This document shows positions 20,265 to 54,315 of a stretch of DNA of 64,000 bases, one piece after another (position 1 is the first letter of the stretch; each line of letters opens with the position of its first letter). The stretch covers positions 3,071 through 67,070 of the forward strand of contig DASXUI010000320.1 in NCBI GenBank assembly GCA_036504955.1, read 5' to 3'. Position numbers and translations under genes: made by a program. A model generated the notes under the pieces. That model searched no databases. It worked only from the letters and a program-made list of their open reading frames with translations, and was not told the DNA's origin. This DNA is from Armatimonadota bacterium. Its GTDB lineage: Bacteria > Armatimonadota > DTGP01 > DASXUI01.

Positions 20265-20424
20265 CGGGTAGTCGTACTTCGGGGAGTTCGTGCCGGCCCT
20301 AGACAGCTACCAGGCTGGGATGCCCTGCCTGAGGGAGTCCTTCTCAGCGGGGAGGTCATGCCGAAGACTACAAACAGGCAACCAAGTCCGGCACGTTCGA
20401 AGGTGGCAACTGAGAGGAACTTCC

Positions 20425-21639
20425 ATGCTGATTACGAAGCGCGGTGCTCCCTTGCTACTCGTGGCGATGGTGCTGTGCCAGGCTAGATGCACTGAGGCTG
20501 CGTCAGCCGCCAAGCCCCAGGCGAAGCAGGCCAAACGCCCTCATCCACAAGCCGTGAAGCCGCTACCGCCCCAACTGATGAGCGCCAAGCAGGTCTTCGC
20601 CAAGTTCAGGGGGGCGGTGGCGACGGTCGTGGCCGACATGAAAAGCCGAGCTACCGGTGTCGTCGTGAACGGTGAACTACTTACCAGCTACCGAGCCATC
20701 GAAGGATCCCGCTCCATCGTAGCGACGTTTCCAGGCGGTACAACGGCGCGTCTGGAGGGTATCTCCCGGATCAACAGGGCCCTTGATCTCGTGGGGCTCC
20801 CAGTCTGGAGCGGCGAGGTGCTGGACAAGATCCCCCCAATAGCCCTCCTGAACCAAACGCGAGCCGTGGACCTTCCATCGGTGGGCGATCAGGTCACGGT
20901 GATCAGCAGCCCTCAAGAGGCAGACCAAACGCTTAGTGAGGGTATAGTGGCGGGCGTGCGAACTGTTGATGGCAACACCTGGTTTCAGCTCTCTATCCCG
21001 CTGACTTCAGGAACAAGCGGCAGCCCAGTGTTTGACCGCTTCGGTGATCTGATCGGCATCATCACCTCGGCGGTCAAGGCAGACCCCCCAGTGAGTTTTG
21101 CCGTGTGGATCTGGGATGTGGCGACGGCTCCTCCGTCTGTGCCCATCTCCCTCATCTTGAACACTCCCGCTGACTACGATGACGACCCTGAGATGAAAGC
21201 CTTGACCATGGAACGGAAGCTTGACCGTCTCCATAACGAACCTTCATTGATTGGCCTGCGGAACTTCGGCCTCTACGCGATTGTGTCTGAGGATGCGGAC
21301 AAGCAAGACTTCGCGCGTCGAGTGGCAGATCGCCTGAAGCAACGCGGGATCACCATAGACCCGCTACATACGGGCCCCAGAATGGCGGATATCAATGTGA
21401 CCGTAGTGCGTGAGAACACAGATGACCCAAAGGAGAAGCCAGGGGAGTTCAGCGGTTACATCGCGAGGGTGGTAGTGAGCCAGAGGGTGGCAGTCTGCAC
21501 TCCGGTCAGGACTTACCTCTCGGCTGACACTTACTTCGTGGGCAAGGGTGGGCGTGGCACCCGCCAGCAGGCTTACGATGCTGCACTAGTCCTCGTTGAC
21601 CAGTTCTGCGACGCATATCACAGGGCCAACCCGCAGTAG
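20425..21639 (+). CDS. Secreted trypsin-like (S1/Trypsin_2-fold) protein with a C-terminal extension; the catalytic His motif appears to be absent
   Basis: RBS gagagga before the ATG at 20425. Signal-like N-terminus MLITKRGAPLLLVAMVLCQA. Fold motifs GVVVNGELLTSY, DLVGLPVW, GTSGSPVF (Ser and Asp positions present). No His occurs where TNAHV is expected. The tracked ORF starts at 20290. Confidence 0.7.
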   Translation: MLITKRGAPLLLVAMVLCQARCTEAASAAKPQAKQAKRPHPQAVKPLPPQLMSAKQVFAKFRGAVATVVADMKSRATGVVVNGELLTSYRAIEGSRSIVATFPGGTTARLEGISRINRALDLVGLPVWSGEVLDKIPPIALLNQTRAVDLPSVGDQVTVISSPQEADQTLSEGIVAGVRTVDGNTWFQLSIPLTSGTSGSPVFDRFGDLIGIITSAVKADPPVSFAVWIWDVATAPPSVPISLILNTPADYDDDPEMKALTMERKLDRLHNEPSLIGLRNFGLYAIVSEDADKQDFARRVADRLKQRGITIDPLHTGPRMADINVTVVRENTDDPKEKPGEFSGYIARVVVSQRVAVCTPVRTYLSADTYFVGKGGRGTRQQAYDAALVLVDQFCDAYHRANPQ

Positions 21640-29649: not shown

Positions 29650-29949
29650 CGTTGTCTCCTTTCAAGCATGGGACTTCCGGTACTCCCAGTGTTCAGCTCT
29701 AGTAGGCGCTCCTCCTCTGACCTCATGCCGTGATACCCTTGCGCATACCTACCTCGGGCTCACCTGGTCGTCTAGCCTAGCCCACCTCACTTCCACTCAC
29801 TTCCGTCTCTCCCCAACATACCTCCAGACCACAAGTCCGCGGAGTCGAGGCGGCTTCTCCAGGGGAGGGCCTCATTTCCGCGAAATACCCGCCGTTCAAT
29901 GTCTCCCCCGACTTACCAACCTACGAGCATCCTCAGCAGGATCACATCA

Positions 29950-31880
29950 CATCCCATGGCCTGGTGAGCTACTAGGGGGTATTTCGAGGAATACCGGTGC
30001 TCCCAGCCTGCCAGCGACCTGCCTATGAGGTGTCAGTGGGTGCCTCTGGGCCTGTACTAAGGTGACGTTGGGCTGCTTGTGTGTTACCCTAGAGGAAGGG
30101 CCGAGAAGGGCCTTCCCTAAGAGTGCTATGCGGCCAGGCTGCGAGCCCCTTGCGGCCAAGCACGCCTGGGTGGTGTAGCTGGCAGTGCCAGCACCCAGGG
30201 CCCACCGGTGGGCGAAGACCGAGAGGGGGAGTCCGAGGAGGTCGGTCCCGGCCTCCCCTGCCGGGCCACCCAGTTCCAGGTCCAGCGTAGGTTCGCCAGC
30301 GTGGCCGCCAGGAGGGCTTGGCACAGGCTCTTGGCTCTCCCTCGGTACCGAGCTTGCCCCACCCCCAGAGCCCCCAGCCGGGCCAGTCCGTGCTCCACCA
30401 CCACTCGGTCGCTCAGCACCGCTTGTCCCTCCGGCGTCTGCTGGTAGGCTCGGGCGGCTTGGAGCAGCGCCTCCTGAGGATGCACCCGCACCTGGCGGCC
30501 CACCGCCGAGGCCGTGCATTGATTCCTCAGAGGGCAGCCTCCACAAGCGACTCCAAACTGGTAGAGGCGCCCTCCCTCTCCTTCCTTGACGAAGGTCCGC
30601 GTGGTCTGGCCCGCCGGACGGGTCACCGACTCGTCCTCCAGGTCTACTCTGAAGGCACTCTTGGGGAAGCGACCTCCCGGTCGGCTCTCCCGAGGCGCTC
30701 GAACGACCAGCTCTCGACCCGCCCCTGAAGGCCTGCCGGGTGGCTCCGCCGCCGTAGGCTCCGTCTCCCACCACTTGCTCCACCGCTTGCCCGGTAGTCT
30801 CCTCGACCCGCTCGATCGCCTCCAGCACCCCTTGAGCGTCTCCCGCGTTGCCCGGCAACAGCGCGCAGTCCAGAATGAGCTGGCTCTCCCGGTCCACGAC
30901 GACCGCCACCTTGTGTCCCGTGAAGCGCTTGTGGGCGCTCTTGTGGCCGTGGCGCTGTTCGGGATCGCTCACCGAGGGGATTCGGTCGGGGGCGGTGCCC
31001 TGCTTCAACTGAGCCCTCGGCCCTCCCTCGGGAGGTTCCTGCCACTCCACGTCCTGGAGCAGAAGCTGACTCAGCAGCTCGCAGGCCTCCTTCACCCGCT
31101 CCCGCTGGTTCTCTCCCACGAAGCTGGCCCAGTGCAACAGCCGTCGGGCGTCTGCCACGATCTCGGTCAGGAAGGCTTCCCGAGCCTGGGGATCCGACCA
31201 GTCCAGCTCCGCGCTGCCCTTCAGGCTGGGCCCGAAGTAGCGCCCCAATCCCTGCCGGGCGACCCAGGCCTCCAGCTTCTCCCCGCTGGCCTTGGCCAGC
31301 GCCCGGGTCACCTGCTGGATGCCCGCGGCCAAGAGGTTGTAGGTGTCCTCCACCGCGCCCTTCCCCAGCATCGGCTTGGTATCGACGGCGACCTTGAGCT
31401 TCCCGCCCTTCAGCAGGCCGGCCCGCCTTGCTTCCTGGAGGCTCCCCTCGAAGAGCTGCCGCACCCCCTCATGAAGGATCAGATGAGAGCGGAAGAGCTG
31501 CAGAGTGCTCTTGGCACACAAGGGGGCTCCCGCGTGTCGGTTCAAGACAGCGGCCCAGCGTAGGTCGAAGCCGCTGCGCTCTACCGCCTCCTCGTCGGAG
31601 CAGCCCGCCTGTTGTTGCAGCAGAAGCATTAGGGCCAGTTGAGAGGGAGGTACGCTGGGACGACCCACGCGCTCGGAGTAGCAGGCCAGGAAGGCCTCTT
31701 CCCGGAAGAGCCGGGGCGCGGCCTGGGCGAGCTGTCCGTGGAAGCTCCCCTCCGGCAACTCCAAAGGCCACACGTTTCCGACATTAAAGAGACTGACTTG
31801 CTTCTTGCGCCGACCCAGCATCCACTGACCTCCTGGGGTCCATCCTCAGGAAGGAATTCCACCAGCCAAACAAGGAACCC
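29950..31880 (-). mobile_element. IS1182-like (IS5 superfamily) insertion sequence with frameshifted transposase (boundaries approximate)
   Basis: Transposase ORFs 31821..~30650 and 30626..30126 in different frames. Motifs DPEQRHGHKSAHKRFTGHKVAVVVDRESQLILDCALLPGNAGDAQ (DDE) and C-terminal CGGCPLRNQCT...ARYRGRAKS are typical of IS1182-type transposases. Confidence 0.7.
30126..31821 (-). pseudogene. IS1182-family transposase, frameshifted
   Basis: After ~410 good residues the N-terminal 624-aa ORF runs into low-complexity junk (SRAGRSSASGEPTGRS...). The true C-terminal region continues in ORF 30626..30126. Confidence 0.7.
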
Positions 31881-31891
31881 TCTGATCGGCT

Positions 31892-31911
31892 ACTGTTGCC
31901 TGTAGCAACCG
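31892..31911. repeat. Left copy of the 20-bp inverted repeat ctgttgcctgtagcaaccgg
   Basis: Perfect 20/20 reverse-complement match to 37354..37373. Lies 10 bp outside the left inverted repeat of the IS701 copy. Confidence 0.6.
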
Positions 31912-31920
31912 GGCCTTTTC

Positions 31921-33394
31921 GGCCACGTCTCTAGTACTACAACGACGAGCTTGGATCGGCTAGAGTAGCCCTGGCGAGCCGGCGTGGACGCCAGGGAGTT
32001 GACGGTTGAACCTTCAGAACTTCGAGCAGGTGCGGGAGAGTTTCGCCGCCTTCCACGCCCAGGTGGCCGCGGCCTTTGGCCGCAAGCAGTGGCGCGAACG
32101 CAGTCAGCAGTACCTGCAGGCCCTGCTGGTGCAGAGCCAGGAGCGCTGCAACGCCGAGAACCTTGCCGAGGTGGTGCCCGCCTCCCCCCGGGTGCTGCAG
32201 CGCTTCCTGACCGAGGCCTCCTGGGACGAGGAGAGTGTGTTGCACCGGCTGCGGGAAGTGATGGCCCCCCGGCTGCAGGACTCTGAGGGAGTCTGGGTGG
32301 TGGACGAGACCAGCTTCCCCAAGCAGGGGAACAAGAGCGTGGGGGTGGCGCGGCAGTACTGCGGGGCCCTGGGCAAGAAGGCCAACTGCCAAGCGGGGGT
32401 CTTCCTGGCCTACGTGAGTCCCAAGGGACGCCTGCTGTTGGACCGGCGGCTCTACCTGCCTCAGGCCTGGCTGGACGAGCCGGAGCGTTGTCCAGGGGGC
32501 GGGTGTGCCCCAGGCGGCTCAGGAGTACCACAGCAAGACGGCCTTGGCGCTGCAACTGCTGACGCAGGCGCTGGCGGAAGGTCTGCTGCAGTCCTGCTGG
32601 GTAGCGGGGGACGACCTCTACGGTCAGTCCCCCAGCTTCCGGCAGGGGGTGGAGGCCCTGGGCCTGGGGTACGTGCTGGACCTGCCGCCCAGCGCTCCAG
32701 CCTGGCCGGAGGCGGTGACCTGGGAGCAGCCTCCCTACCGGGGCTACGGCCGACCGCCGGTCGCCCAGCCGACGGCAGGCCAACGGAAGAGCCTGGAGGA
32801 ACGGGCTCAAGCCCTGCCCGACCAAGCCTGGCAGCGCCTGACTTTGGCGGAAGGCGCCCAAGGTCCCCGGACCTATCTCTTTGCCGTGGAGCGGGGCCGC
32901 TTGAGTGAAGCGAAGGGTCCCGGCTCGGGGGCTTGGCTGGTCTACCGGCGGAACCTGGACGGCAGCGAAGCTCGCTACTATGTTTCCAACGCGCCGGAGG
33001 AGACGGCCTGGCAAGTGCTGGCGAAGGTGGCGGCTTCCCGCTGGCCCATCGAGACGGAGTTCCGCTGCAACAAAGGGCTGGTGGGCCTGGATGAGTACGA
33101 GGTGAGGAGCTGGTCGGGCTGGCATCACCACATCACCATGAGTCTCTTGGCTAGCGCCTTCCTGTTGTGCTTGCAGCAGGACTGGGGGGGAAAACGAGGC
33201 CCCCATCACCCGGCCCCAGGCCTACCGGATCGTCTCCGAGATCTTACCGCGCAAGCGTTGGACCCCAGAGCAACTGCTGGAGTGGTTGCAGGGAACCCAG
33301 GAGCGCAATGAAGCGGCAAAGCGCTCCCATGCTAAGCGTCGGCGCCTCCGAGATGCCCAGGAGGCATCGGCATGACTCGTCGTTGTAGTACTAG
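31921..33394 (+). mobile_element. IS701-family insertion sequence (1.47 kb) with perfect 19-bp terminal inverted repeats; transposase frameshifted
   Basis: ctagtactacaacgacgag at 31921..31939 and its exact reverse complement at 33376..33394. Encloses the IS701-type transposase ORFs. Confidence 0.8.
32006..33311 (+). pseudogene. IS701-family transposase, single +1 frameshift near 32490
   Basis: VVDETSFPKQGNKSVGVARQYCGALGKKANCQAGVFLAYVSPKGRLLLDRRLYLPQAW in ORF 32006..32908. Continues as AGVPQAAQEYHSKTALALQ...WPIETEFRCNKGLVGLDEYEVRSWSGWHHHITMSLLASAFL in ORF 32505..33311. Confidence 0.8.
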
Positions 33395-34254: not shown

Positions 34255-35295
34255 CTAGAACAACAAGTACCCCAGAATCTTGTTGGGCCAATGGCCGCGA
34301 CGATCGAGTACGAAGCGAGTTAGCTCGGCCGCTAGTGCCTCCGACGTGGTCTTCATCAGCACGTATTCCGGATAGGTGTACCGGTTGTGGTATTCCGCCT
34401 TCTCCAGCGACCCCCTAAAGTCCGGATCATTGATACTAGATATGAATACGTTATACGGGCCGAGCAGGTTAGTGACGTCGCTTTCGCCGCAGTCCGAGTA
34501 GACGTGACAGATTCTCTCCAGCGGAGTGTGACCCAGCTGACCGCGGATATAGGGCTCCTTGTCGGTCTTCGTTGACGAGTTAAGCACAACAGACAGCAAC
34601 CCGAAGTACATTAATACCCGGCTGTGGCGCAGCTTGGCATTCCTAATCGCCCACTTCTCGTGTTCATTTAGGAAGTTCACTTCGTAGTTGACGCAGACTG
34701 ACCTGAAGAACCGGATGATCTCATTCAGAAGCATCAATGGCTGTTTGTCAGGCTCCTTGTGGCTGTAGCGCATATAGGCGTCGAGAACACACTGCGTCGC
34801 ATCGCGGAATAGCTTCTCGTTGTATACGCACTTCGCCTCCAACAGAAGCACCATACGACGCGCCAGATCATGAAGTCCATCATCTTTACCGCCGATACCA
34901 TCCGTTACAGTCTCGATGCTAATTGCGGAAGAGAACAGGCCGGTCGGGTTGGGTAACGGAATATCGAGGTCTTGAATGATACTGCGGACATGTTCGATGA
35001 CAGGGGAGATAGCAGTGGTGCTCGGAGCATGCTTGATCAGAATCAGGAAATCAGCATCGCTCCGTGGGCCTGCATCGAGCCGACCATAGGATCCCGCCAG
35101 GGCCACAGAGAACCACGCATCGGTAAAGCGATCGGCGAGCCTATCGGCCAGAGCATTCAGTCTCTCAGCGCTGTATCTCCAGGACGCCGTAAGGGTCGGG
35201 CAGCGACGGAGGCTGGTGTTTGCCGGGATGTCGGGGGTATCACTATAACGAATTGGATCGCCTGGGTATCGCATGCCAACTGTCATGAAGAGCAA
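34255..35295 (-). CDS. GlnD/GlnE-DUF294-type nucleotidyltransferase (Pol-beta superfamily) with a helical C-terminal domain
   Basis: GS-x9-DxD motif AGSYGRLDAGPRSDADFLILI closely resembles the GGYGRGEL-P-SDIDLLIL motif of GlnD/GlnE/DUF294. GC about 53-55%, well below the ~66% background. Separated from the upstream gene by 3 nt. Confidence 0.65.
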   Translation of the reverse strand: MLFMTVGMRYPGDPIRYSDTPDIPANTSLRRCPTLTASWRYSAERLNALADRLADRFTDAWFSVALAGSYGRLDAGPRSDADFLILIKHAPSTTAISPVIEHVRSIIQDLDIPLPNPTGLFSSAISIETVTDGIGGKDDGLHDLARRMVLLLEAKCVYNEKLFRDATQCVLDAYMRYSHKEPDKQPLMLLNEIIRFFRSVCVNYEVNFLNEHEKWAIRNAKLRHSRVLMYFGLLSVVLNSSTKTDKEPYIRGQLGHTPLERICHVYSDCGESDVTNLLGPYNVFISSINDPDFRGSLEKAEYHNRYTYPEYVLMKTTSEALAAELTRFVLDRRGHWPNKILGYLLF

Positions 35296-35298
35296 TCC

Positions 35299-36726
35299 TC
35301 ACGGGAGCAGGTAGCGTCCACTGAACGGATCTGAGCGAACGCGAAGGATAACGTCGAAACCTTCATCGGGTCTAGGCCGCTCGAAGAGCGCAGCAGCATG
35401 GTGGATGCGCGAATCAGACAGAACGCGAGACCGGAGTCGATTGCGTCGAAGCACAACACCCAGCGGCTCATCGAACCAAAGGCAAACAATACGGGCGTTC
35501 GATCTCTTGGCTAGATTGACCCACAAGTGCCTGTACCGACGCTCTAGGTTAGTGGCATCTACGACCACGGAGTGACCTCCGACCAGATGCCGACGCGCCA
35601 TGGCTCTCAGTGCCCTGAAGAGCACGGCATTGGCTCCTGGGTCTGTGGGGCTAACTGCGAGGAGGCCTCGGAGTCGGTCCGAGCTGACTACGGGCCGCTG
35701 CTGCAAGGACGACCATGTTGACTTGCCGGACGCTGGTAGACCTACAAGGAGCACCATCTCCGGTGCACGCAGCCTGATTCGGTTCGTCCCCTCCATCACC
35801 TCAGCCAAACAGTAGGGGGCGGGAAGTGGCAACGGTGCCGCTTCCAGCAAAGCACCACGGTACGCCGCCTCGTCGGCGGCTCCGTCAATAACGCCTGATC
35901 CGGTGGCCGACGTAACTGCGCCACTCACCTGCCTGGTTGCTTGCCTGACGACCGATACCCGATGGGCGACTTGGAAGCCAGCACAGAACAACCCGGCCGT
36001 CCAGAATCGTGTGGCGGGACCATGGTTCTTGAATCGATCGCTGAAGCCGCCGCAGAGCACGCTCGCTGTACGCCCCGCGCTCACCACCGCCGCGCTGAAC
36101 AGGTCTTCGTATGCAGGGATGGCCGTCGTGGCCGGATCCACTTCCGGAGCGTGCGCAAGATACACTTCCGACCCTAGGAGTCGCGGAAGGGCGGGGTCGT
36201 CTGCCCCGCAATGCCCTACCACGACAAGGCTGGTGGCCTCTTCGTGACAGAGCAGGTGACTGCGTAGTGCATCCCTGTCGAGGATCACACCCGCAGACAG
36301 CAGAAAGATAACCTGCCCGTGAGCATGAGCAACTGCTAGGTTCTTGGCAGCCTGGGGAGGGGTAGATGGGAGCGCCAGATGCCTCACCCCGCCGAGAAGG
36401 CTCGAGTAGTGCGCCCAGGTTCTGTCGGTGCGGCAGACCTGGCTGACCGACACATCAACCACGAGCACCTCAACGAGCGGTCGCTCCCCACAGATGAGCG
36501 ACTGCTCTGCTATCGATGCAAGCGTAAGGTGCAGGGCAGCCGATCCGTGAGCGACGAGAACGACAACGGTTACCGCTGTGTGCTGCCCCCGCGCCATGGC
36601 CTGGGTGCCAGCGCCCGAGTTGCCGGACGGGTTGTCTGTCGGACGTGCAACTGGGCGCGAGGGATGATCGCGTGTCTTAAGCACATCAACGTAACTCATC
36701 GGCCTCGCAATTGGCATAGTACGCAC
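35299..36726 (-). CDS. Fusion protein: N-terminal GT2-type glycosyltransferase-like domain, C-terminal P-loop kinase (AAA_33/zeta-toxin/CPT-like) domain
   Basis: N-terminal TVVVLVAHGSAALHLTLASIAEQ...LVVDVS...AHAHGQVIFLLSAGVILDRD (GT-A-like). C-terminal Walker A LLVGLPASGKST, VVVDATNLERRYR and CLWFDEPLGVVLRRNR. GC about 58-60%. Confidence 0.6.
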   Translation of the reverse strand: MRTMPIARPMSYVDVLKTRDHPSRPVARPTDNPSGNSGAGTQAMARGQHTAVTVVVLVAHGSAALHLTLASIAEQSLICGERPLVEVLVVDVSVSQVCRTDRTWAHYSSLLGGVRHLALPSTPPQAAKNLAVAHAHGQVIFLLSAGVILDRDALRSHLLCHEEATSLVVVGHCGADDPALPRLLGSEVYLAHAPEVDPATTAIPAYEDLFSAAVVSAGRTASVLCGGFSDRFKNHGPATRFWTAGLFCAGFQVAHRVSVVRQATRQVSGAVTSATGSGVIDGAADEAAYRGALLEAAPLPLPAPYCLAEVMEGTNRIRLRAPEMVLLVGLPASGKSTWSSLQQRPVVSSDRLRGLLAVSPTDPGANAVLFRALRAMARRHLVGGHSVVVDATNLERRYRHLWVNLAKRSNARIVCLWFDEPLGVVLRRNRLRSRVLSDSRIHHAAALFERPRPDEGFDVILRVRSDPFSGRYLLP

Positions 36727-37353
36727 GGAGAAAGCCTACCTAACCTGCATAGGGGTCCGGAGCAAGGCAACCATGCCTGGATTCGCCACGAGTATGGGCT
36801 AGTCCTCGGCCGCTGGGTATCTACTGACGCGGGGTCGCGGAGCGGGCCTCTGCCTTTCGACGATGTGAGCGCTGCCAGCCACCGTTGCCAGGCAGGAACG
36901 CCTCGGACCCCGCGCCCCTTGACGTCATCTGGTGGGGAGTGGCTGCCGCCCGGGCCGAGGAATACCACGCGCATCGAGCCGCCCTCCGCTTCCGTGCTTC
37001 CCAACGGTGAGCGTGGCCCCGTAGATACATTGGCCCGGCGATCCCTCTTGAGAGGCCAGGTATGGGCCCGGAGCTTGTCGAGCAGTCCCAGTTCAGCCTT
37101 CAGGCCGGGAAGAATCTGATCCCTAATCTGCTGGTACGTGTCGGCGCCGAACTCCGGTTGGCTCCCACCAGGACACCGGCCTAGTACCGCAACGGGGAAT
37201 CGCAATGGGCGGTTGTATGTCACTATCGGCCTATTGCCTGCTATGAGCGTGGGCTACCAGCCCAAGGGCCGCCACCTGACTTTTCGCAGTTGTCGTAGTC
37301 ATCAGCCGCTGCGGTCTCGTCGTTGCAGCACTAGAGACATGGCCGTGTAGGTC

Positions 37354-37642: not shown

Positions 37643-38452
37643 TCAGACGGACGCGGACGGCGAGTCCGCCGGGCCGGTCGAGGGAACGTCTAGGGGTACA
37701 CCCGCGCGTTTGCGCTCCCTCAGCCGGTAGCTCTCCCCGCGGATGTGAACCACCGTGCAGCGGTGCAGCAACCGGTCCAGCGCGGCGGCAGCCATGACCG
37801 CGTCCCCCGCGGAGATCTCACCCCACTCCCCAAAGGCTTTGTTGGAGGTCAGGATGACCGACTGGCTCCGCTCATACCGATGGCACAGCGCCTGGAAGAG
37901 CAGCGACGCCTGGGTGTTGTCCAGGGTCAGGTAGCCTACCTCATCGAGGATCAGCACCTTGGGCTGCAGAAGCTTCCTCATCTCCCGGTGCAGCCGGTTC
38001 TCTGAAAACGCCAGGGAGAGCTTGCGGGCCAGCTCGATGGCCGAGGTGAAGTAGGCCCGGTGGCCGCGCTCACAGGCCAGGAGGCCCAACCCCAGCGCCA
38101 GGTGGGTCTTCCCGACGCCGGGCGCACCGAGGAAGACCAGGTTGCGGCCCTCATAGAGGAAGCGCAAGGTGGAGAGTTCCTCGATGAGGCGACGATCCAG
38201 CGAGGGTAGGGCCTCGAAATCGAAGTCGGCCAGCCGCTTGAGCAGGGGGAAGCGAGCGAACTTGAGGTTGAACTCTACGCTTCGTCGATGGCGTTCCTGG
38301 ACCTCAGCGTCCAGCAGGTAGCCCAGGAAGGCGCTGTAGCTCCAAGACTCCGCCGCCGCCCGCTGGCAAGCGCCATCGAGACGTTCCTGCACCCCCTTGA
38401 GTCCCAGCTTCTCCAGGGCGGCCTGGGCCTGCTCTTCGAGGAGAGGGGTCAC
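37643..38452 (-). CDS. istB: IS21 IstB ATPase helper
   Basis: GTG start at VTPLLEEQ. Walker A NLVFLGAPGVGKTHLALGLG, Walker B LLILDEVGYL, C-terminal SVILTSNKAFGEWGEI. The tracked ORF (to 38956) carries a spurious 168-aa low-complexity N-terminal extension. Confidence 0.8.
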   Translation of the reverse strand: MTPLLEEQAQAALEKLGLKGVQERLDGACQRAAAESWSYSAFLGYLLDAEVQERHRRSVEFNLKFARFPLLKRLADFDFEALPSLDRRLIEELSTLRFLYEGRNLVFLGAPGVGKTHLALGLGLLACERGHRAYFTSAIELARKLSLAFSENRLHREMRKLLQPKVLILDEVGYLTLDNTQASLLFQALCHRYERSQSVILTSNKAFGEWGEISAGDAVMAAAALDRLLHRCTVVHIRGESYRLRERKRAGVPLDVPSTGPADSPSASV

Positions 38453-38541
38453 GAGACCAACTCCTCGTAGTGGCTCAGGGGTGGCACGGTCACGGCCTCC
38501 GCCGCCGTCCACTGCAGCGCGGGCTGAGGCGGTGGGCTCTT

Positions 38542-39619
38542 CTAGAGGGTCTGCTGCCACAGAGCGGTGACGTGCTCGGCGGTGGCCACCGAGGCACCGG
38601 GAGCGCCGCGAGGGTGCTCGGCGAGGACCAGGTCCCCCAGCTTGACCTGGACCCGCTGCTCCTGCTGCACGACGACCACGGGCTGGCCCACGTACTGGGG
38701 CGGCACCGAGTAGCGCACACTGGCCAGGTGGACGAAGCCCTCGGCGTCCGCCCGGCGGGAGTGGCGCAGACAGAGCAAGTAGGGCGGGATCTCCGAGAGG
38801 GGGGACAGGCCCTCCCGAGGCAGCAGATCCAGGGGCCGCTCCCCGGTGGTGGCGTGAACGCGGCGGTTGGCTTGCTCTAGCCAGAGACGGCCCTGCTGGC
38901 TCAGGTCCTGAAGGCCCGCGAAGGAGCGGCCTCGCAGGAAGTTGTCTTTGAGGCAATCCACCCTCCGCTCCACCTTGCCCTTGGTGCGGGGCCGGTAAGG
39001 GCGGTGGGTACGCACGGCGAAGCCGTAGTGGGCGGAGAAGTCAGCGAAGAGGGGGTGCAAACCGCCCTGGGGTCGCTTCACCTGGGCCGTGTTGTGATAG
39101 AGGAGGGTGCTGGGCACCCCGCCCAGGAAGCTGAAGGCCCGCTGATGGCAGGTGATGAGGGTAGGCAGATCCATGGAGCGGGTGAACTCCAGGTAGAGCA
39201 GCCGGGAGAAGGAGAGGACTAGCACGAAGGCGTAGAGCTTGCCCTCTTCATCGGCCCCTATGTAGGCCCAGTCCACCTGGGCCTGGTGGCCTGGCGCGGT
39301 CTCGAAGCGCACGGTGGCTTTCCTCAGGTCCTGCTGCTACCGCATGGCCTCCATGGGCCGCTGGGCCAAGTCCACGGAGCCTGCGCAGCCCTGAGATCGA
39401 GGTCTGACCAGGAGCCGGGCGTCGGACAGCTCCCAGGCTTCGAGGCCCTTTTTCAGGTAGGGCTTGAGGGATCTGGACAGCTCGTGCGCCGAGGCTTCGG
39501 AGGGGCCGAGGCACCGTCTCCCGTAGCGCTCTGGCGACCGTGACGCGAGGGTAGCCGGTCCTTCGGGCAATCTCGCGTTACGAAAGTCGCTGGCGGAGTA
39601 GCCCCTTGATGTCCGGCAT
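38542..39619 (-). pseudogene. istA: IS21 IstA transposase, decayed (in-frame TAA, TAG and at least one frameshift)
   Basis: MPDIKGLLRQRLS*REIARRTGYPRVTVARALRE, with TAA at the conserved SQREIAR position. Frameshift, then ...AQRPMEAMR*QQDLRKATVRFETAPGHQAQVDWAY, with TAG where Q is expected. The DDE region is intact in ORF 39312..38542. Confidence 0.75.
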
Positions 39620-40089: not shown

Positions 40090-40482
40090 TCAGGATGCGG
40101 TCGCATCGCCCAATCGCTGGCCGGAGATCGTCTCCGGATCCTCTCCAGCTACGGCGCGGCCGATGTCCTCAATGGTGGCCCCAAGGCCAACCACCGCTTC
40201 CACGATGGCGTCGATCGAGGTGACTCCGCTGATGCCCCGTTCCAACCGGGAGGCCCGGGACTGGTTGATCCCCAGCTTCCCCCCAAGGTTCGCCTGGGTT
40301 AGGTTCTGGCCCTTGCGGAAGGTGCGGAAGAGCTTGGCGAGTCTGAGACGCAGCTCAACGCACGCCTCCAGCTCGGGGGTGAGCTGGAGGAAGTCGGCAT
40401 AGATGCCAGTGGACCATCCACCAGCGACCAGCCTGGCATCCTCCTCCGCGATCTTCGCACTATCCTCATCGGTGGGAGGCAC
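40090..40482 (-). CDS. XRE-family HTH protein, HigA-like antitoxin paralog (no adjacent toxin found)
   Basis: HTH LTQANLGGKLGINQSRASRLERG. Overall similarity to the 40921..41280 product. GTG start. Confidence 0.55.
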   Translation of the reverse strand: MPPTDEDSAKIAEEDARLVAGGWSTGIYADFLQLTPELEACVELRLRLAKLFRTFRKGQNLTQANLGGKLGINQSRASRLERGISGVTSIDAIVEAVVGLGATIEDIGRAVAGEDPETISGQRLGDATAS

Positions 40483-40920: not shown

Positions 40921-41280
40921 TCACTCTGCGACCACCTTGGCCTCACAGGTCCTGTCCAACTCGATTCCGGCGATGGCTAGTCCCACCTGCTCTACGGTTG
41001 CTCCGATGGAGTAGGCCATCAGAATCATGGCGTCCAGGGACGTGGAGGAATGGGCTTTCTGCATCTTCGCAACGCGGGAATGGTCTGTGCCTGCGGCAGC
41101 GGCTAGCCAAGTCTGTGTGAGCTGCCTCTCCTGCCGTTTCGCCCGAATGAGCCTCGCTACTCGTAAGCGAGTCTCTACCAGAGCGTGGTCTTCTGCGGAC
41201 AAGCCCAGAAGGTCTGCGTATCTCCCAATGGTCCACCCGTGGGAGATCAGGTTCGACCGCTCTTCATTGGTGAGCGGCAT
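40921..41280 (-). CDS. XRE-family HTH antitoxin (HigA-like)
   Basis: HTH LTQTWLAAAAGTDHSRVAKMQ. Lies immediately downstream of the RelE/ParE-like ORF in toxin-first HigBA order. Confidence 0.6.
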   Translation of the reverse strand: MPLTNEERSNLISHGWTIGRYADLLGLSAEDHALVETRLRVARLIRAKRQERQLTQTWLAAAAGTDHSRVAKMQKAHSSTSLDAMILMAYSIGATVEQVGLAIAGIELDRTCEAKVVAE

Positions 41281-43052: not shown

Positions 43053-43274
43053 ATGCCCATGACCCGCTCGATCCCGCCCCCGCCTCTGGGGCTCCACTCT
43101 GGGGACCCCAGGCTGGGGGAGCAGCCGGAGAGCCCTCCGGTCTGCCTGCCGCCCCACCAAGTGTGGGCCACTCTCCAGCCCTTTCAGCGCCAGCGGGTGC
43201 TGCAGGCTCTCACCCGAGTGTGCCGAGCCCTGCTGACCCCCCAATCCCCGGAGGAGACCGATGAGCGCCTCTGA
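43053..43274 (+). CDS. Small protein translationally coupled to the serine recombinase (candidate accessory/directionality factor)
   Basis: GC3 about 80%. Its stop overlaps the recombinase ATG (43261). Pro-rich N-terminus then a helical VWATLQPFQRQRVLQALTRVCRALL. Start codon uncertain (43026/43053/43062). Confidence 0.35.
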   Translation: MPMTRSIPPPPLGLHSGDPRLGEQPESPPVCLPPHQVWATLQPFQRQRVLQALTRVCRALLTPQSPEETDERL

Positions 43275-45378
43275 CCCGTCCCTCGTGCCGCTGCCCGGCG
43301 CTCAGAAGGTGACCCCTCGCCATCGTCAGGGCTTGGCTTGCGTCTATGTCCGCCAATCCTGCCTCAAGCAGGTGGAGAACAACCGGGAGAGCCAGATCAA
43401 CCAGTACCGTCTGGCGGAGAAGGCCCAGGCTCTGGGCTGGCCTCCCGAGCAGGTACGCGTCATCGATAGCGACCTGGGCCTCTCCGCTCAGAGCAGCGAC
43501 GATCGCTCGGGCTTCAAGGAACTGGTGGCCGAGGTCTCCCTGGGCCATGTCGGGTTGGTCCTGGGCTACGAGGTCTCCCGCTTGGCCCGCAACAACAGCG
43601 ACTGGTACCATCTTCTGGACCTGGCCGCCGTCTTCGGCACCCTCATCGCCGATAGCGACGGTCTCTACGACCCTCGCTCCTACAATGACCGACTCCTGCT
43701 GGGGCTGAAGGGCACCATGAGCGAAGCCGAACTTCACCTGCTGCGCCAGCGCTTGGACGCGGGCCGCCTCACCCAGGTCCAGCGCAACGCCTACCGACAG
43801 CAGCTCCCCACGGGGCTGGAGCGGCGGCTCGATGGCACGGTGGTGAAGGATCCCGATGACCAGGTGCGGCACACCTTGGAGCTGGTCTTCGAGAAGTTCG
43901 AGGAGCTGGGCACCGCCCACGCGGTGATGCGCTACCTTCGCCAGGCCGAGATCCGGCTGCCCCGGCGGCAGCGCTGTGGGCCACAGCGCGGGGAGGTGCT
44001 CTGGAAGGTGGCCGCCGATTGGGCGGTCCGGGACATCCTGCGCAACCCCGCCTACGCCGGAGCCTTCGCCTATGGGCGGCGACAACTCGAACCCAGTCGG
44101 TTGCAGCCCGGCTTCCGGGCTACCGGGCGGTTGGCTCGCCCCGAGGAGGAGTGGCTGCATCTGGCTCAGGGGATCTACCCGGCCTACCTCTCCTGGGAGC
44201 AGTTCGAGGCCAACCAGGAACGGCTCCGAGCCAACAGCACCTTGAGCTGGGCCGCGACTCAGGAAGGGGCAGGACCGGTACGCGAGGGAGCTGCCCTGCT
44301 GCAGGGCTTGGTCTTCTGCGGCGCTTGCGGGCGGCGAATGCGCACGGTCTACCGCGGCGCCACCTACCGCTACGCTTGCGAGGCCTTGGCCAAGGAGCGA
44401 GACCTACCACGCTGCGGGTCGCTGTTGGGGCCTGCCCTGGACGAGAGGGTGGCCGAAGCCTTCCTGGCCGTGCTGCAGCCCGCGCAACTGAGCGCGCTGG
44501 AAGCCCTGTTGGCGGACCAGCAGCAGGAGCGCGAACGGCTCAGCCGCCACTGGGAGGAGCGGCTGAAGCGGGAGCGCTACGAAGCCGGACTGGCAGAGCG
44601 ACAGTACCGGGCGGTAGACCCGGAGAACCGTCTGGTGGCCGCCGAGCTGGAACGACGCTGGGAGGAGACGCTGCGCCGCCTTCAGGCCACCCAGCAGGAG
44701 TACGAGCGCTTTCGGCGCACGCTGGAGGTGCCCCAACTCAGCGAAGAGCAGAAGCAGCTTTTCGCCGAGATCTCGACTCGGCTACCGGGGCTGTGGGAGA
44801 GCGGTGAGCTGAGCCCCCCCCAGAAGAAGGAGTTGCTACGGAGCCTGGTGGACCGGGTGGTGGCCCGGCGGTGGGATTCGGGTACGGTGGAGCTGAGGAT
44901 CCTGTGGGTTTCGGGCCACTACACCGAGACCGTGGTCCGCCACTCCGTGACCCGATTGGTGGATGTGGCCGACTACGACCGGCTGGTCCTCCGGGTGGAG
45001 GCGCTGTGGCGAGAGGGACTGACGGATGAGGCGATCGCGGCGCGTCTCACCGAGGAAGGGCTGCGCTCAGCGCGCTCCCGGCGAATCCCGGCCCAGACCA
45101 TCCAGCAGCTTCGGCTAGAGCGGGGCTGGTATCAGAGGCTGCACCGCAGCCGAGGAGCCGATGAGGTGGAGGGCTACCTGACGGTGCGAGGGCTGGCCGT
45201 GCGGCTGGGAGTCAGGCGGGGTTGGGTCTACCGCTGGCTAGCGAGAAACCCGCTGCAGGAACGCTGGGTTCTAGGACATCCGAAAGGCGGTCTCTACCTG
45301 ATCCGGGCTGACGAGGAACTCCTCGCCCAACTACGTCGGTGCTTACCGGGGAAACCGGGTAGGCCAAAGGGGCATTGA
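43261..45378 (+). CDS. Large serine recombinase (resolvase/invertase N-domain + recombinase domain + zinc ribbon + coiled coil)
   Basis: Catalytic-Ser region ACVYVRQSCLKQ...QINQYR. Resolvase-domain motifs VSLGHVGLVLGYEVSRLARNNSDWYHLLDL. Zinc ribbon CGACGRRMRTVYRGATYRYAC...PRCGS. Long C-terminal coiled coil. 705 aa. Confidence 0.9.
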   Translation: MSASDPSLVPLPGAQKVTPRHRQGLACVYVRQSCLKQVENNRESQINQYRLAEKAQALGWPPEQVRVIDSDLGLSAQSSDDRSGFKELVAEVSLGHVGLVLGYEVSRLARNNSDWYHLLDLAAVFGTLIADSDGLYDPRSYNDRLLLGLKGTMSEAELHLLRQRLDAGRLTQVQRNAYRQQLPTGLERRLDGTVVKDPDDQVRHTLELVFEKFEELGTAHAVMRYLRQAEIRLPRRQRCGPQRGEVLWKVAADWAVRDILRNPAYAGAFAYGRRQLEPSRLQPGFRATGRLARPEEEWLHLAQGIYPAYLSWEQFEANQERLRANSTLSWAATQEGAGPVREGAALLQGLVFCGACGRRMRTVYRGATYRYACEALAKERDLPRCGSLLGPALDERVAEAFLAVLQPAQLSALEALLADQQQERERLSRHWEERLKRERYEAGLAERQYRAVDPENRLVAAELERRWEETLRRLQATQQEYERFRRTLEVPQLSEEQKQLFAEISTRLPGLWESGELSPPQKKELLRSLVDRVVARRWDSGTVELRILWVSGHYTETVVRHSVTRLVDVADYDRLVLRVEALWREGLTDEAIAARLTEEGLRSARSRRIPAQTIQQLRLERGWYQRLHRSRGADEVEGYLTVRGLAVRLGVRRGWVYRWLARNPLQERWVLGHPKGGLYLIRADEELLAQLRRCLPGKPGRPKGH

Positions 45379-45389
45379 GATGGCTGAGC

Positions 45390-45725
45390 TTTGCCCACGC
45401 CGGTCGGTCCGTAGAGCAGCCAGTTCTCCTGTCGGGCGATGAACTCACAGCTCGCCTGGCGCAGAACGAAGGCCCGGTCCAGGGTAGGCAAGGCGGCGAA
45501 GTCGAACTGGCTGAGGCGCTTGGGGCGCTCGAAGCCGGCTTCTCGCTCTCGGCGCTCCAAGACGTGCTGATGACGCCGGTCGATCTCGTCCTCGAGCAGC
45601 AGAGCGAGGAACTCCAGCGGGGAGAGCTGCTGACTCTGAGCCAACTCCACCCGTGCGTTGAGGGTGTTCAGCATCCCCGAGAGCTTCAGCTCCTTGAGCT
45701 TGGGGGCCAGGGGATGAGTCAGCAT
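45390..45725 (-). pseudogene. istB: istB N-terminal fragment of IS21 copy 2 (through Walker A GPTGVGK)
   Basis: MLTHPLAPKLKELKLSGMLNTLNARVELAQ...FDFAALPTLDRAFVLRQASCEFIARQENWLLYGPTGVGK, after which the frame runs into the inserted element. Confidence 0.75.
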
Positions 45726-47260
45726 GAGGGGGCCTCCGGGCCGAAGAACTCCTCAGGCTGCCGAGCATGGGCGTAGGTCCGAGGAGTCGCGGGGACCGCC
45801 TTCCCTTCCTCGGCGAGGGGTTCGCTGTCGAGGCCCGCGGCCAGGATGGCCTTGACCCGCCGGTAATGCGGGTCGCCGTAGTGCAGGGCTCGGGCGCAGG
45901 CCGCCTCCAGGCGCTCCCGACCCACCCGAGCCTCCAGCCCCACCAGGCTCTGCACCGCCCTCAGGTGGTCGGCGGGAGACTGAGCCAGGAGGTAGACCAC
46001 TAATAGATGACAAGAGGGGCCGACTTGCTGAGCGCGCTCCTGGCAGACTTCGGGCGTACGCTCCAGGTAGAGGGCCTTCTCCTTGGGGTAGTGCTCCAGG
46101 CGGGTGAAGCGCTCGCCGGGGCTTTGGGCTCGGGGATGGGTGATCACTAGCTCCGTGCCTCGGTAGAGCTGGAGGGTGTGCTCGTAGAGGTGGGCTTCCA
46201 GGGTCTGGCCCACCAGGGCGTGGGGCACCGAGTAGAAGCTGCCCTCCAGCACCACGTGGCAGTCCCGGTGCACCCGCACCTCGCGGACCGCCTCGAGCTG
46301 GAAGGGCTCGGGGGGGAGAGGTGCCAGGGCCTCCCGCTCCCGCTGGAAGCGGGCCAGGGGCGCTTCGTGAGTGGTGCCGTGGTCCCTTACGCCAGCGACC
46401 TCCCGCACCCAGACTCGCACCCGCTGGTTGGCGTCGGCGAGATCCACGAAGGAAGCCCCCGCCAGAAAGTTCCGCTGCAGGTAGCGGACGCCGTTCTCCA
46501 CCTTGCCCTTGTGCTGGGGGGTACGAGGGCGGCAGGGATGCAGCAGGAAGCCGTAGTGCTGGGCCATCTGGCGGTAAGGAGTGGAGAAGACCGGGTCCTC
46601 CAGAGCATGCTGGAGCACCCCGGCCTTCAGGTTGTCCAGGACGATCTCTTGAGGCGTGCCCTCGAAGCTCTCGAAGGCCCGGCGGTGGCAACCGATCCAG
46701 GTGGGCAGGGACTGGTCGAAGACGAACTCGACGTACTGATGCCGAGAATAGCTCAGGGTCATCAGGAAGGCGTAGGCGGGGCGTAGCTTGCCGGTGCCCG
46801 GGTCCTTCAGCTTCCCGACCGCGGTGAAGTCCACCTGGGCCTGGCGTCCGGGAGACGTCTCCAGGCGCACGGTGGCCTGGGGGCTCGGAGGGCGAAGATG
46901 CCGCACGAAGCGCCGTACCGAGGAGTAGCTTCCTGGGTAGCCGTGGTGCTGGACCAGTCGCTGGTGCATGGCGCTCTGCTCCACCCCTAAGCGCAGCCAC
47001 TCCTCGATCAGCGCTTGGTAGGGCTCTACGCTGGAGGGGCAGCGCGGAGGGGGAGCGGGCGGCCCCAGGTGGGCCAGCAGCAGGTCGGGAGGCGGCAAGG
47101 GCGTCCCAGGCTCCAGGAAGCCCTTCCCTCGGGCCAACTCATGGTAGCGGCGGACGGTCATACGGGAGTGTCCCAGGTCGCGGGCGATGGCCCGCTCGGA
47201 TTGCCCCTGTCGCAGGCGGTAGACGATGTCTTGGATGAGCTGCATGGGTAGTCGCTCCAT
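45719..47260 (-). CDS. istA: IS21 IstA transposase (intact, 513 aa)
   Basis: N-terminal HTH (IQDIVYRLRQGQSERAIARDLGHSRMTVRRY), second HTH (LVQHHGYPGSYSSVRRFV), DDE region (GRQAQVDFT...). Overlaps the istB start by 7 nt. Confidence 0.85.
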   Translation of the reverse strand: MERLPMQLIQDIVYRLRQGQSERAIARDLGHSRMTVRRYHELARGKGFLEPGTPLPPPDLLLAHLGPPAPPPRCPSSVEPYQALIEEWLRLGVEQSAMHQRLVQHHGYPGSYSSVRRFVRHLRPPSPQATVRLETSPGRQAQVDFTAVGKLKDPGTGKLRPAYAFLMTLSYSRHQYVEFVFDQSLPTWIGCHRRAFESFEGTPQEIVLDNLKAGVLQHALEDPVFSTPYRQMAQHYGFLLHPCRPRTPQHKGKVENGVRYLQRNFLAGASFVDLADANQRVRVWVREVAGVRDHGTTHEAPLARFQREREALAPLPPEPFQLEAVREVRVHRDCHVVLEGSFYSVPHALVGQTLEAHLYEHTLQLYRGTELVITHPRAQSPGERFTRLEHYPKEKALYLERTPEVCQERAQQVGPSCHLLVVYLLAQSPADHLRAVQSLVGLEARVGRERLEAACARALHYGDPHYRRVKAILAAGLDSEPLAEEGKAVPATPRTYAHARQPEEFFGPEAPSC

Positions 47261-53316: not shown

Positions 53317-54315
53317 TCAGGCATTAACTCCGAGCTGGCAGGACGGCATCTGCTGTCGTACTAGCGCCCAATCCTCGGGCGTTAGCCGGTCGCGTCCCCT
53401 AGCTATGAGGCGGGAGACGTAAGCCTCGCCCTCGACCAGAGCCACTAAGGCCAGGGGGCGAGCGTTCTTCTCAGTCCATGCCCTTGTCTTCATGTAGTCG
53501 CGTACTCGCGGGGCGGTGTCGAGCCTTGACTTGGCCACCCTACCAAGAAACACGTCCCAGTTCTCCCAGGTACGCCACCTAGACTTCTGCTTGTTCGCGC
53601 CAGGCTCCTTGAAGTCAATGTACGACTTCAGGACGCCTGCCATTCCAGCCATTCCCTCCTCACAGATTCGATTGGCAGCCAGTTGTGCTGCTCTGTGCTT
53701 CAGTTCGAACTCCACTCGAATCCATGGGCCAGGCGTGTCAGTCTGGACTGCCTTGTCATAGATACGTAGGTATCTCTGCCCCTTGCGGCTTCCAAAGGAC
53801 TCCCCGTAGCTCACCTGCTCCCCATCGGCTGTGTTGCAGCCATGTGGAAGGTACGAAAGACCATTCCTGGCCCGGCAGACGTAGTAGCCCTGGCGTATGC
53901 GGCGCTGGATGTCCTGCATACTGAGGATGCCACAGTGGTCATCGACAGCCACATCAATCCGCTTCATGGAGGCGTTACTAGCCAAGAGGAGGCCGAGGAA
54001 CTCGCGCCACGTGTGACCGGGGGCATCGTCGGTGCCTTCGTTCCTAATGACTCCGATGCGCTCCAACTCACGGCATCCGCGACCGCTTAGCAGTAAGTAC
54101 GGTTCGCATGACTTCCGCTTGGTAAACCTGAAGATAGTTCCTGGCCTAGAGGCTCCGTACTGATGGTATCTCAGGTTCCTGGTGCCTATGAGGCTAAGAA
54201 GCTCGGAATGGTCAGAACCTTCTGGAAACCCCACCTTTAGGTAGTCGATGCATATCTGCGATGCACTTTGCAATTGTGTATTACTAAGGGAGCATCCGTC
54301 CATATTACCGTTCAT
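53317..54315 (-). CDS. Rep_trans-family rolling-circle replication initiator
   Basis: GSRKGQRYLRIYDKAVQTD and WIRVEFELKHRAAQ match the Rep_trans YxRiYDK...RvElElr signature. 332 aa. Confidence 0.65.
   Translation of the reverse strand: MNGNMDGCSLSNTQLQSASQICIDYLKVGFPEGSDHSELLSLIGTRNLRYHQYGASRPGTIFRFTKRKSCEPYLLLSGRGCRELERIGVIRNEGTDDAPGHTWREFLGLLLASNASMKRIDVAVDDHCGILSMQDIQRRIRQGYYVCRARNGLSYLPHGCNTADGEQVSYGESFGSRKGQRYLRIYDKAVQTDTPGPWIRVEFELKHRAAQLAANRICEEGMAGMAGVLKSYIDFKEPGANKQKSRWRTWENWDVFLGRVAKSRLDTAPRVRDYMKTRAWTEKNARPLALVALVEGEAYVSRLIARGRDRLTPEDWALVRQQMPSCQLGVNA

Follow-up and report, generated by a model that had tools for sequence, protein, structure and literature searches.

The stretch of DNA analysed here, 64,000 nucleotides from a bacterium of the Armatimonadota (assembly GCA_036504955.1, contig DASXUI010000320.1, positions 3,071 to 67,070) and hereafter called the window, carries on its minus strand a pair of tightly linked genes. 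The downstream one encodes a nucleotidyltransferase (NTase), the upstream one a fusion of a degenerate glycosyltransferase (GT)-like domain with a P-loop kinase. The locus belongs to no characterised system and is best described as a kinase-partner version of an uncharacterised candidate family centred on a GlnE/DrrA-type NTase. Across that family, the exchange of one partner enzyme for another is striking and, as far as we found, unreported; the fusion protein of the window is a singleton of uncertain significance. A first-pass annotation of this DNA did not recognise the combination of domains and, indeed, no characterised system fits it, but the NTase family itself is already on record in PADLOC as the untested candidate PDC-M70A. 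In the literature, we found neither PDC-M70 nor the NTase family described beyond that candidate list. The pair is also, as supposed at the outset, no part of a standard lipopolysaccharide or teichoic-acid pathway.

The NTase gene (34255..35286, minus strand) encodes 343 amino acids, nearly all of which are covered by the match to the PADLOC PDC-M70A hidden Markov model (E 3.4e-38, 129.9 bits, with residues 30-333 aligned to positions 17-342 of the 355 in the profile). Pfam returned only matches below threshold (NTP_transf_2 at 1.7e-3, 19.1 bits against a cut-off of 21, and DUF294 at E 0.15), no GlnE, GlnD_UR_UTase or DUF294 match reaching threshold, and the NCBIfam GlnD model TIGR01693 matches locally at residues 60-114 (2e-4, 19.7 bits against a cut-off of 519). 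The catalytic motif (35050..35094, minus strand) reads G65-S66-Y-G68-R69-x6-S76-D77-A-D79, which is to say G65-S66-x10-D77-x-D79 or, more briefly, G-x11-D-x-D; the GS-x9-DxD given in the first-pass annotation was a miscount. In an alignment of 16 family members the residues G65, S66, G68, R69, S76, D77, D79, W212, R215, K218, L219, R220 and R223 are invariant, while position 150, Glu in the window protein, is Glu or Asp in all 16. The signature GSYGR-x6-SDxD is that of GlnD, GlnE and DrrA.

The resemblance extends to the structure. In the AlphaFold2 (AF2) model, helices spanning residues 157-342 form an all-helical, HEPN-like and DUF294_C-like C-terminal domain (34258..34818, minus strand) bearing a conserved basic motif, LLNxxIRYFR ... 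W-A-I-R-N-A-K-L-R-H-S-R. A Foldseek search with the model placed DrrA first, with template modelling (TM) scores of 0.38-0.46 for DrrA and GlnE, and around 240 residues, including those of the helical domain, could be aligned structurally with these two proteins. The domain falls among the HEPN-derived C-domains of such NTases in the classification of PMC3710099. The model, with which the motif agrees, shows the downstream protein as an intact GlnE/DrrA-type NTase with a two-domain fold of Pol-beta core plus HEPN-like helices, much as the GlnD/GlnE-type enzyme with a DUF294_C-like tail that had been proposed from the sequence. In common with GlnE, GlnD and the AMPylation domain of Legionella DrrA/SidM it has the Pol-beta NTase core, the HEPN-like helices, the G-x11-D-x-D spacing and the GxYGR...SDxD signature. 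Unlike them, it is a single 343-residue module without ACT, duplicated NT or guanine nucleotide exchange factor domains, its identity to them is only 8-15%, and the window offers no glnA, glnB or Rab context.

Other assignments for the NTase were tried and set aside. There is no Pfam match to RlaP (PF10127), to AbiEii/MenT (DUF1814) or to the CD-NTases. The helical domain might have been read as a HEPN RNase, the window protein having R215-x5-H221, but His is present in only 10 of the 16 aligned members and, since the Rx4-6H motif is thus not conserved, an RNase function is unsupported; this also distinguishes the family from HepT/MntA and fused MNT-HEPN proteins. No phage homologs emerged, either by tblastn against 50,697 phage records or as significant structural matches in BFVD.

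Relatives of the NTase are few and scattered. A word-based search of 5.8 billion proteins found 18, and scanning 185,579 species genomes for a sequence pattern gave 240 loci, distributed among Acidobacteriota, Gemmatimonadota, Cyanobacteria, Pseudomonadota, Actinomycetota, Planctomycetota, Bacteroidota and Chloroflexota; on these figures the family must be considered rare and patchy. Around 100 loci (numbered with the prefix L below) were collected, their neighbouring genes were clustered and the partner types were mapped on an identity-based clustering of the NTases; two contigs, L091 and L096, proved too short to show neighbours. A phospho-ester enzyme lies within 1.5 kb of the NTase in 87 of the 97 assessable loci; in most cases the two genes are direct neighbours and, with few exceptions, they have the same orientation. 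The co-occurrence survey proposed in the first-pass annotation therefore has a divided outcome: the exact gene pair of the window does not recur, the fusion having no homolog, but the association of the NTase with some phospho-ester enzyme does.

The type of partner tracks the NTase clade, and the partner families are not homologous to one another. An Endo IV-like TIM barrel of the AP_endonuc_2 family, matching PDC-M70B at 5.7e-53, lies upstream of the NTase in all 40 Solirubrobacterales-type loci, and an HD protein of about 375 residues lies upstream in 13 of 14 alphaproteobacterial loci. Elsewhere, a His_Phos_1 protein is accompanied either by a downstream 2H phosphoesterase or by a HIT protein, with a 2H enzyme and a phosphomonoesterase flanking the NTase in about ten loci. 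Yet other loci have a HIT protein as the only partner, frequently with an overlap of 4-20 nt at the start of the NTase. A chromosomal clade in the gammaproteobacteria has DUF188/YaiI, upstream of the NTase, in three of 11 loci and is otherwise partnerless. Active sites are preserved: RHG/RHA in 12 of 12 His_Phos_1 partners, two HxT motifs in eight of eight 2H partners, HxHxH in seven of 11 HIT partners and LLHD[IV]G in every HD partner examined. As judged by these motifs, the survey shows the partners to be catalytically competent phospho-ester enzymes, swapped clade by clade and drawn from at least six unrelated folds. Long NTase open reading frames (ORFs) resembling fusions, at L035, L050, L052, L076 and L084, have no Pfam domain in the extension and were taken to be over-extensions by the simple ORF caller.

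The NTase of the window forms a subclade with three others (P0002, P0003 and P0004) at 53-57% identity. Flanks are readable in two places only, the window and L002 (L003 being an identical pair), and at both a P-loop kinase stands beside the NTase, a type of partner seen in no other subclade. The two kinases are not orthologous. That of L002 has 237 residues, is divergently oriented and resembles 2-phosphoglycerate kinase (5.6e-23), and only the Walker-A/Asp segment is common to both. Scanning metagenomes for further members of the subclade yielded six loci, all at most 44% identical, in none of which a kinase partner could be read. A possible third kinase partner, the P-loop protein of L100, was down-weighted, its gene overlapping a Kongming-like SIR2-Ham1 pair with which it probably forms one system.

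The kinase of the window occupies the C-terminal part of the fusion protein, which consists of a degenerate GT-A-like N-domain, a low-complexity linker and the P-loop kinase. The kinase domain (35335..35769, minus strand) matches AAA_33 at 7.7e-21 and displays a Walker A sequence GLPASGKST (35716-35742, minus strand), an SSD-x2-RG motif with the catalytic Asp (35677-35679, minus strand), VVDATN and a lid sequence RRNRLRSR. The bacterial Pnkp model TIGR04075 matches in its kinase part alone (positions 6-123 of 851, 1.7e-17, 62.9 bits against a cut-off of 750), and the C-terminal 150 or so residues additionally match the NCBIfam PNK-3'Pase and PSTK models. The best sequence match in the PDB is the kinase domain of Clostridium thermocellum Pnkp (4gp7, 8.6e-10), with which the Walker A, SSDxxRG, VVDATN and lid RNxxR motifs all line up. 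The protein is confirmed as a P-loop kinase, as annotated at first; its comparison with zeta toxins and chloramphenicol phosphotransferases was not sustained. PF06414 Zeta_toxin matches the Walker A region only, at E 0.22, there is no antitoxin-like neighbour, and the motifs, all the catalytic ones being present, instead point to the polynucleotide-kinase (Pnkp/AAA_33) type.

For the N-domain (36025..36570, minus strand; predicted inactive) the likeness to GT2 enzymes of the GT-A type is weak but, on sequence comparison, seemingly real: Pfam Glycos_transf_2 (PF00535) matches at E 1.5e-4 with 22.2 bits against a gathering cut-off of 23.3, and NCBIfam EpsD at E 7e-8 with 32 bits against a cut-off of 370. 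Three genuine GT2 proteins encoded on a Rhizobium plasmid served for comparison in an alignment. In place of the metal-binding DxD motif the N-domain has S-A-G (36289..36297, minus strand), its LLSAGVIL corresponding to FVDADTIV, FLDCDMVV and YTDCDNSI in the others; the ED acceptor-base segment is absent, while the conserved first Asp (VVD) is retained. The N-domain is therefore very probably not a working glycosyltransferase. The GT-A-like fold originally assigned is retained in its weak form, but glycosyl transfer is unlikely since both DxD and ED are lost, and the three transferase chemistries once attributed to the gene pair are probably two.

Our tentative preference, held at somewhat less than an even chance and leaning on analogy, is that the family constitutes a mobile conflict module based on NMPylation, the transfer of nucleoside monophosphate (NMP), in which a writer is paired with a counter-enzyme. 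The NTase would move NMP from a nucleoside triphosphate to a hydroxyl of a macromolecule; by analogy of fold with GlnE, GlnD, DrrA and MntA, a protein Tyr, Ser or Thr would be the favoured target, with an RNA end as second option. The partner in most clades, be it HD, HIT, His_Phos_1, 2H or Endo IV-like TIM barrel, would reverse or limit the modification, and the two proteins would act as a conflict module of toxin/antitoxin-like or abortive-infection-like character. Erasers of comparable function are the HD domain of GlnD, SidD against DrrA and DarG against DarT, while the kinase TakA neutralises the NTase toxin TglT. Replacement of one partner by a non-homologous one usually marks a relationship of writer to eraser or of toxin to antidote. 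Moreover, the gene order, partner upstream and NTase downstream with overlaps, resembles that of antitoxin-toxin operons.

In the window subclade, on this same proposal, the P-loop kinase would take the place of the hydrolase and control the same reaction by phosphorylation. It might phosphorylate the acceptor hydroxyl and so block NMPylation, or it might act in the manner of TakA on TglT and phosphorylate the NTase itself. The GT-A-like domain, having lost its catalytic motifs but kept the nucleotide-binding Asp, would serve in ligand binding, regulation or docking and not as a transferase. To our knowledge, NMPylation of protein or nucleic acid in bacteria is confined to a few enzymes, namely GlnE, GlnD, Fic, DrrA, MntA, SelO and MenT. 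The GlnE/DrrA-like family described here is rare, spans several phyla, is for the most part mobile and is almost invariably coupled to phospho-ester enzymes. If the proposal is true, it would bring a new chemistry to toxin-antitoxin and anti-phage biology, together with a set of candidate de-NMPylases, and the kinase variant of the window would make phosphorylation another means of controlling one and the same writer.

The Pnkp-like kinase invites a different explanation, the healing and tailing of RNA or other nucleic-acid ends, in which the kinase would phosphorylate a 5'-OH and the NTase would add or cap nucleotides on the healed end; in other clades the 2H, HD, His_Phos_1 or Endo IV-like partners would remove 2',3'-cyclic or 3'-phosphates, for the purpose of repairing ribotoxin damage or of modifying invader RNA. 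Beyond the alignment of SSDxxRG, VVDATN and the lid arginines with the C. thermocellum enzyme, this would suit the invariant Arg/Lys-rich motif of the helical domain and the 2H plus phosphomonoesterase arrangement of the ten or so loci mentioned above, which follows the logic of a cyclic phosphodiesterase and then a phosphatase. The partner families are known to include processors of nucleic-acid ends: 2H/ThpR, the HD domain of CCA-adding enzymes, Endo IV and the aprataxin-type HIT proteins. Yet a HIT partner is unsuited to 3'-end healing, no RNA/DNA ligase, Hen1 or RtcB was present in the neighbourhoods inspected, and the structural neighbours of the NTase are protein AMPylators; the RNA-specific enzymes TUT7 and CutA appear in the Foldseek results only at E ~0.4, the sole tRNA-NTase matches are viral models at E ~3, and RlaP, as noted, is not matched. 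As for the Pnkp/Hen1 RNA repair system itself, the Walker A, SSDxxRG, VVDATN and lid RxxxR of bacterial Pnkp align, but the window has the kinase domain alone, with neither the metallophosphoesterase and ligase domains nor a neighbouring Hen1, and this domain is fused to one of degenerate GT-A type. We regard end healing as unlikely, though it merits attention.

Genomic contexts of the relatives show that the cassettes are often found on mobile elements, either plasmids or structures resembling integrative and conjugative elements, or beside restriction and defence genes. The PDC systems of PADLOC are untested candidates defined in just this manner, by their embedding in BREX, DISARM or type I restriction-modification (RM) loci ('guilt by embedding'; Payne et al., bioRxiv 10.1101/2024.01.29.577857). 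Among the loci surveyed, one cassette adjoins type I HsdR and an HNH protein (L006), three a type IV restriction enzyme (L008-10) and another HmaC (L025). On a Mycobacterium plasmid (L095) the cassette has an OLD-like ATPase on one side and a type I RM system on the other, and at L097-99 the neighbours are TraG/VirD4, a resolvase and a toxin-antitoxin pair. The arrangement with HD upstream recurs on the E. coli plasmid pISHS7_5 (L093; NZ_CP092257.1), a 4.5-kb replicon of the ColE1/Rop type whose only cargo is the HD gene (4104..4499 plus 1..666) and the NTase gene (711..1706). This plasmid was found in one of 5426 complete E. coli genomes, and makes the NMPylation hypothesis directly testable in a model organism.

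L100 (668..4176) has a HIT-NTase cassette and, 130 nt beyond it, three overlapping genes, which encode a 190-residue P-loop protein (AAA_28/AAA_33), SIR2_2 and Ham1. The last two resemble the KomBC effector pair of Kongming, with the P-loop protein in the place of KomA; beyond this trio come a U32 protein and two methyltransferases, the second of the Eco57I type. That the cassette adjoins a Kongming-like pair, which responds to a nucleotide signal, might indicate a signalling or alarmone-type system in which the NTase makes a non-canonical nucleotide (2'-5' oligoadenylate-, (p)ppApp- or cyclic-nucleotide-like) and its partners degrade or mature it. The HD, 2H, HIT and His_Phos_1 families are all known to include degraders of nucleotide signals, and one member of the NTase family has weak PADLOC matches to 'oligonucleotide cyclase' (8e-4). 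These matches, however, fall well short of what membership would require, the cassette has no effector or sensor gene as a constant companion, and the fold lies closer to GlnE and DrrA than to cGAS/CD-NTase, OAS or RelA-SpoT. A signal-producing role consequently appears very unlikely.

A quite different environment is met at L094 (Rhizobium sp. BT04 plasmid pRspBT04e, 1..11127). There, the NTase and a His_Phos_1 protein are encoded within a co-directional cluster together with three GT2 glycosyltransferases, two MFS transporters, a HAD hydrolase and an AAA_28 P-loop protein, and genes for a DegT aminotransferase and a Gfo/Idh/MocA oxidoreductase adjoin on the opposite strand. The cluster echoes the window combination of GT-like domain, kinase and NTase. 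It is one reason to consider that the kinase and NTase O-phosphorylate or O-nucleotidylate a small molecule, whether antibiotic, metabolite or glycoside, in the service of resistance, self-protection or biosynthesis, with the GT-like domain binding a sugar or nucleotide moiety and the phosphatases of other clades recycling the modified compound. The 2-phosphoglycerate-kinase-like protein of L002, the likeness of His_Phos_1 partners to CobC and, weakly, of the TIM barrel to CbiR, and the carriage of a cassette as cargo on a small ColE1-type plasmid would be consistent with this idea. So would the architecture, since the aminoglycoside nucleotidyltransferases (ANT) ANT(4'), ANT(3'')(9) and KNTase likewise combine an NTase core with a helical C-domain and are plasmid-borne. 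Against this, the NCBIfam models give only E 0.035 for ANT(4')-II and E 0.16 for ANT(3'')-II, far below their cut-offs of 350-400 bits. A resistance enzyme, furthermore, has no need of a hydrolase partner that undoes its modification, and embedding among RM and defence genes would not be expected of it. In the window itself, the GT-like domain is catalytically degenerate and no transporter or biosynthetic genes adjoin the pair, the neighbours being insertion sequence (IS) genes. On this evidence, small-molecule modification is distinctly improbable.

Several observations nevertheless weigh on the other side of the NMPylation proposal. PDC-M70 is still a candidate only, and what is said of the toxicity, target and activity of its members is deduced from comparison. 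The kinase is no eraser, so that the version in the window requires a separate ad hoc step, and its closest relatives by sequence are enzymes that act on nucleic-acid 5'-OH ends and not on proteins. TM scores to DrrA and GlnE of only ~0.45 mean that the class of substrate cannot be inferred with confidence. The named families nearest to the partners, albeit by weak matches, are small-molecule enzymes: CobC for His_Phos_1, CbiR for the TIM barrel and 2-phosphoglycerate kinase. The L094 context, the only one of its kind seen, suggests metabolism of a sugar-derived small molecule, and, of ten large neighbouring proteins examined in the His_Phos_1 clade, eight went unmatched in PADLOC. Finally, the gammaproteobacterial clade (L007, L028-L030, L032-L034 and L037) has intact catalytic residues and yet mostly no phospho-ester partner. 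In most of its loci the chromosomal surroundings are conserved and include msrA, a gene for an alpha/beta hydrolase and one that is DsbA-like, suggesting a domesticated or non-toxic role, and the existence of a partnerless chromosomal clade argues against obligate toxicity.

A bolder version of the NMPylation proposal may be formulated, although we hold it to be doubtful. In this, the NTase family would be a new class of enzymatic conflict system in which a GlnE/DrrA-like enzyme NMPylates a macromolecule of host or invader and an exchangeable phospho-ester enzyme sets or resets the modification; the window would hold a form of it not seen before, in which a polynucleotide-kinase-like domain would have replaced the eraser, and the fused pseudo-glycosyltransferase would sense a nucleotide or sugar.

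Comparison with known systems places the locus beside, and not within, each of them. It resembles PADLOC PDC-M70 in the near full-length PDC-M70A match, in being a two-gene cassette with the partner upstream and in its association with mobile elements. The canonical partner PDC-M70B, on the other hand, is an AP_endonuc_2 TIM barrel, while that of the window is the GT-like/P-loop kinase fusion, for which there is no PADLOC match, and the window NTase is only 25-29% identical to the NTases of the TIM-barrel clade. GlnD shares with one clade of the family the coupling of an NTase to an HD enzyme that removes the modification. DarT/DarG, DrrA/SidD, TglT/TakA and HepT/MntA are similarly two-gene mobile modules in which one enzyme modifies a target and its neighbour reverses or blocks this, TakA being a kinase that neutralises an NTase toxin and MntA an NTase acting on its partner; none is related in sequence or family to the window proteins, and the window NTase family, unlike these, contains a partnerless chromosomal clade. 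The locus consequently lies outside PDC-M70, Pnkp and GT2 for lack of the B gene, of the phosphatase, ligase and Hen1, and of the catalytic motifs, respectively, and outside zeta toxins, ANT and HepT/MntA because the family models and defining features of those groups do not extend to it.

The fusion protein is an orphan. When the full sequence was compared with 5.8e9 proteins, only itself and one weak match to the kinase region were returned, and the N-domain alone found only itself even at E <= 10, with nothing at E <= 10 among PDB sequences. HMMER over 1.84e9 representatives gave 4285 matches; among the best 150 listed, the only full-length one is the protein itself, the other 149 being limited to residues ~250-461, that is, to the kinase domain and, at the most, a portion of the linker. 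On these comparisons neither the N-domain nor the architecture is met again in 1.8-5.8 billion proteins. A single-sequence AF2 model of the fusion has a predicted local distance difference test (pLDDT) value of 32 and a predicted TM score (pTM) of 0.22.

Such isolation raises the question of whether the pair is a decaying or chance juxtaposition in an IS-ridden region, the fusion being a remnant of rearrangement that has no joint function with the NTase. The loss of catalytic motifs from the GT-like domain, the truncated or frameshifted IS genes filling the surrounding 15 kb and the failure to find a promoter-like site upstream of the pair all fit that account. Other features do not. Both ORFs are long and unbroken, the kinase and NTase retain every catalytic and invariant residue, and at L002, the nearest relative with a readable flank, a second and unrelated P-loop kinase abuts the NTase. 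The same sequence is also on record from both JGI and Logan. Juxtaposition without function is, to our minds, very unlikely, the more so in view of the junction and composition of the two genes, as follows.

The ORF listing has minus-strand frames at exactly 34255..35295 (346 residues from TTG) and 35299..36726 (475 residues from GTG). These are the two genes that had been proposed to form an operon, and co-directionality and tight linkage are upheld whichever NTase start is chosen. The 3-nt spacing originally given holds only for a start at TTG 35295. A GAGGA Shine-Dalgarno sequence (35296..35300, minus strand) overlaps the TGA of the upstream gene (35301-35299) and stands 9 nt ahead of ATG 35286, as a result of which that ATG is most likely the true start and the gap more probably 12 nt. 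The well-placed Shine-Dalgarno overlapping the upstream stop codon speaks against a chance junction; reading of the sequence here shows the two genes as, in all appearance, translationally coupled. On a metagenome contig of 50.4 kb, 100% identical, JGI calls proteins of 466 residues (from ATG 36699) and 339 residues; we likewise place the fusion gene at 35299..36699 (minus strand, 466 residues), with alternative starts at ATG 36717 and GTG 36726. The GC content is 54.2% in the NTase gene and 60-63% in the fusion gene, compared with 66-68.5% in the flanking IS genes, and third-position GC (GC3) is 0.62-0.66 in the pair versus 0.74-0.88 in the neighbours; the GC3 values that set the pair apart are shared by its two members, which again is unfavourable to chance juxtaposition.

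A 175-residue ORF (36696..37223, minus strand), called as a gene by JGI, overlaps the ATG of the fusion gene at 36699 by ATGA. As a third gene of the locus it was rejected: GC is flat across codon positions (0.65/0.60/0.67), there is no PADLOC match and the JGI record has no Pfam match, and it is probably not a real gene.

The lower GC and mobile setting noticed at the beginning are borne out. On both sides of the pair are transposase genes of IS21 (truncated istA plus istB), IS4-like and frameshifted IS701-like elements. In all, whole and broken insertion sequences (IS4-like DDE_Tnp_1, frameshifted IS701-like DDE_5, truncated IS21 istA plus istB and a second IS21 istA) occupy 29947..33311, 37643..39312 and 45719..47260, and the ~15 kb around the pair is crowded with truncated or frameshifted copies. 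Farther away are genes for a serine recombinase (43261..45378), for Rep_trans (53317..54315) and for a tyrosine integrase (56011..57156). The region has the appearance of an integrative or mobile island that has decayed, and the evidence supports the view of the pair as an accessory module acquired horizontally, in line with the accessory function first suggested.

Two further features of the window may be recorded. Between an IS21 copy and the serine recombinase are two paralogous small genes of the HTH_37/XRE type (40090..40482 and 40921..41280, minus strand), antitoxin- or regulator-like in appearance. At 18248..19396 (minus strand) is encoded a 382-residue protein with a C-terminal DUF559/REase_MTES_1575 (Vsr-like endonuclease) domain, whose neighbours are a large surface protein of the FG-GAP/CarboxypepD_reg type (15953..18109) and a protease of the Trypsin_2 type (20290..21639).

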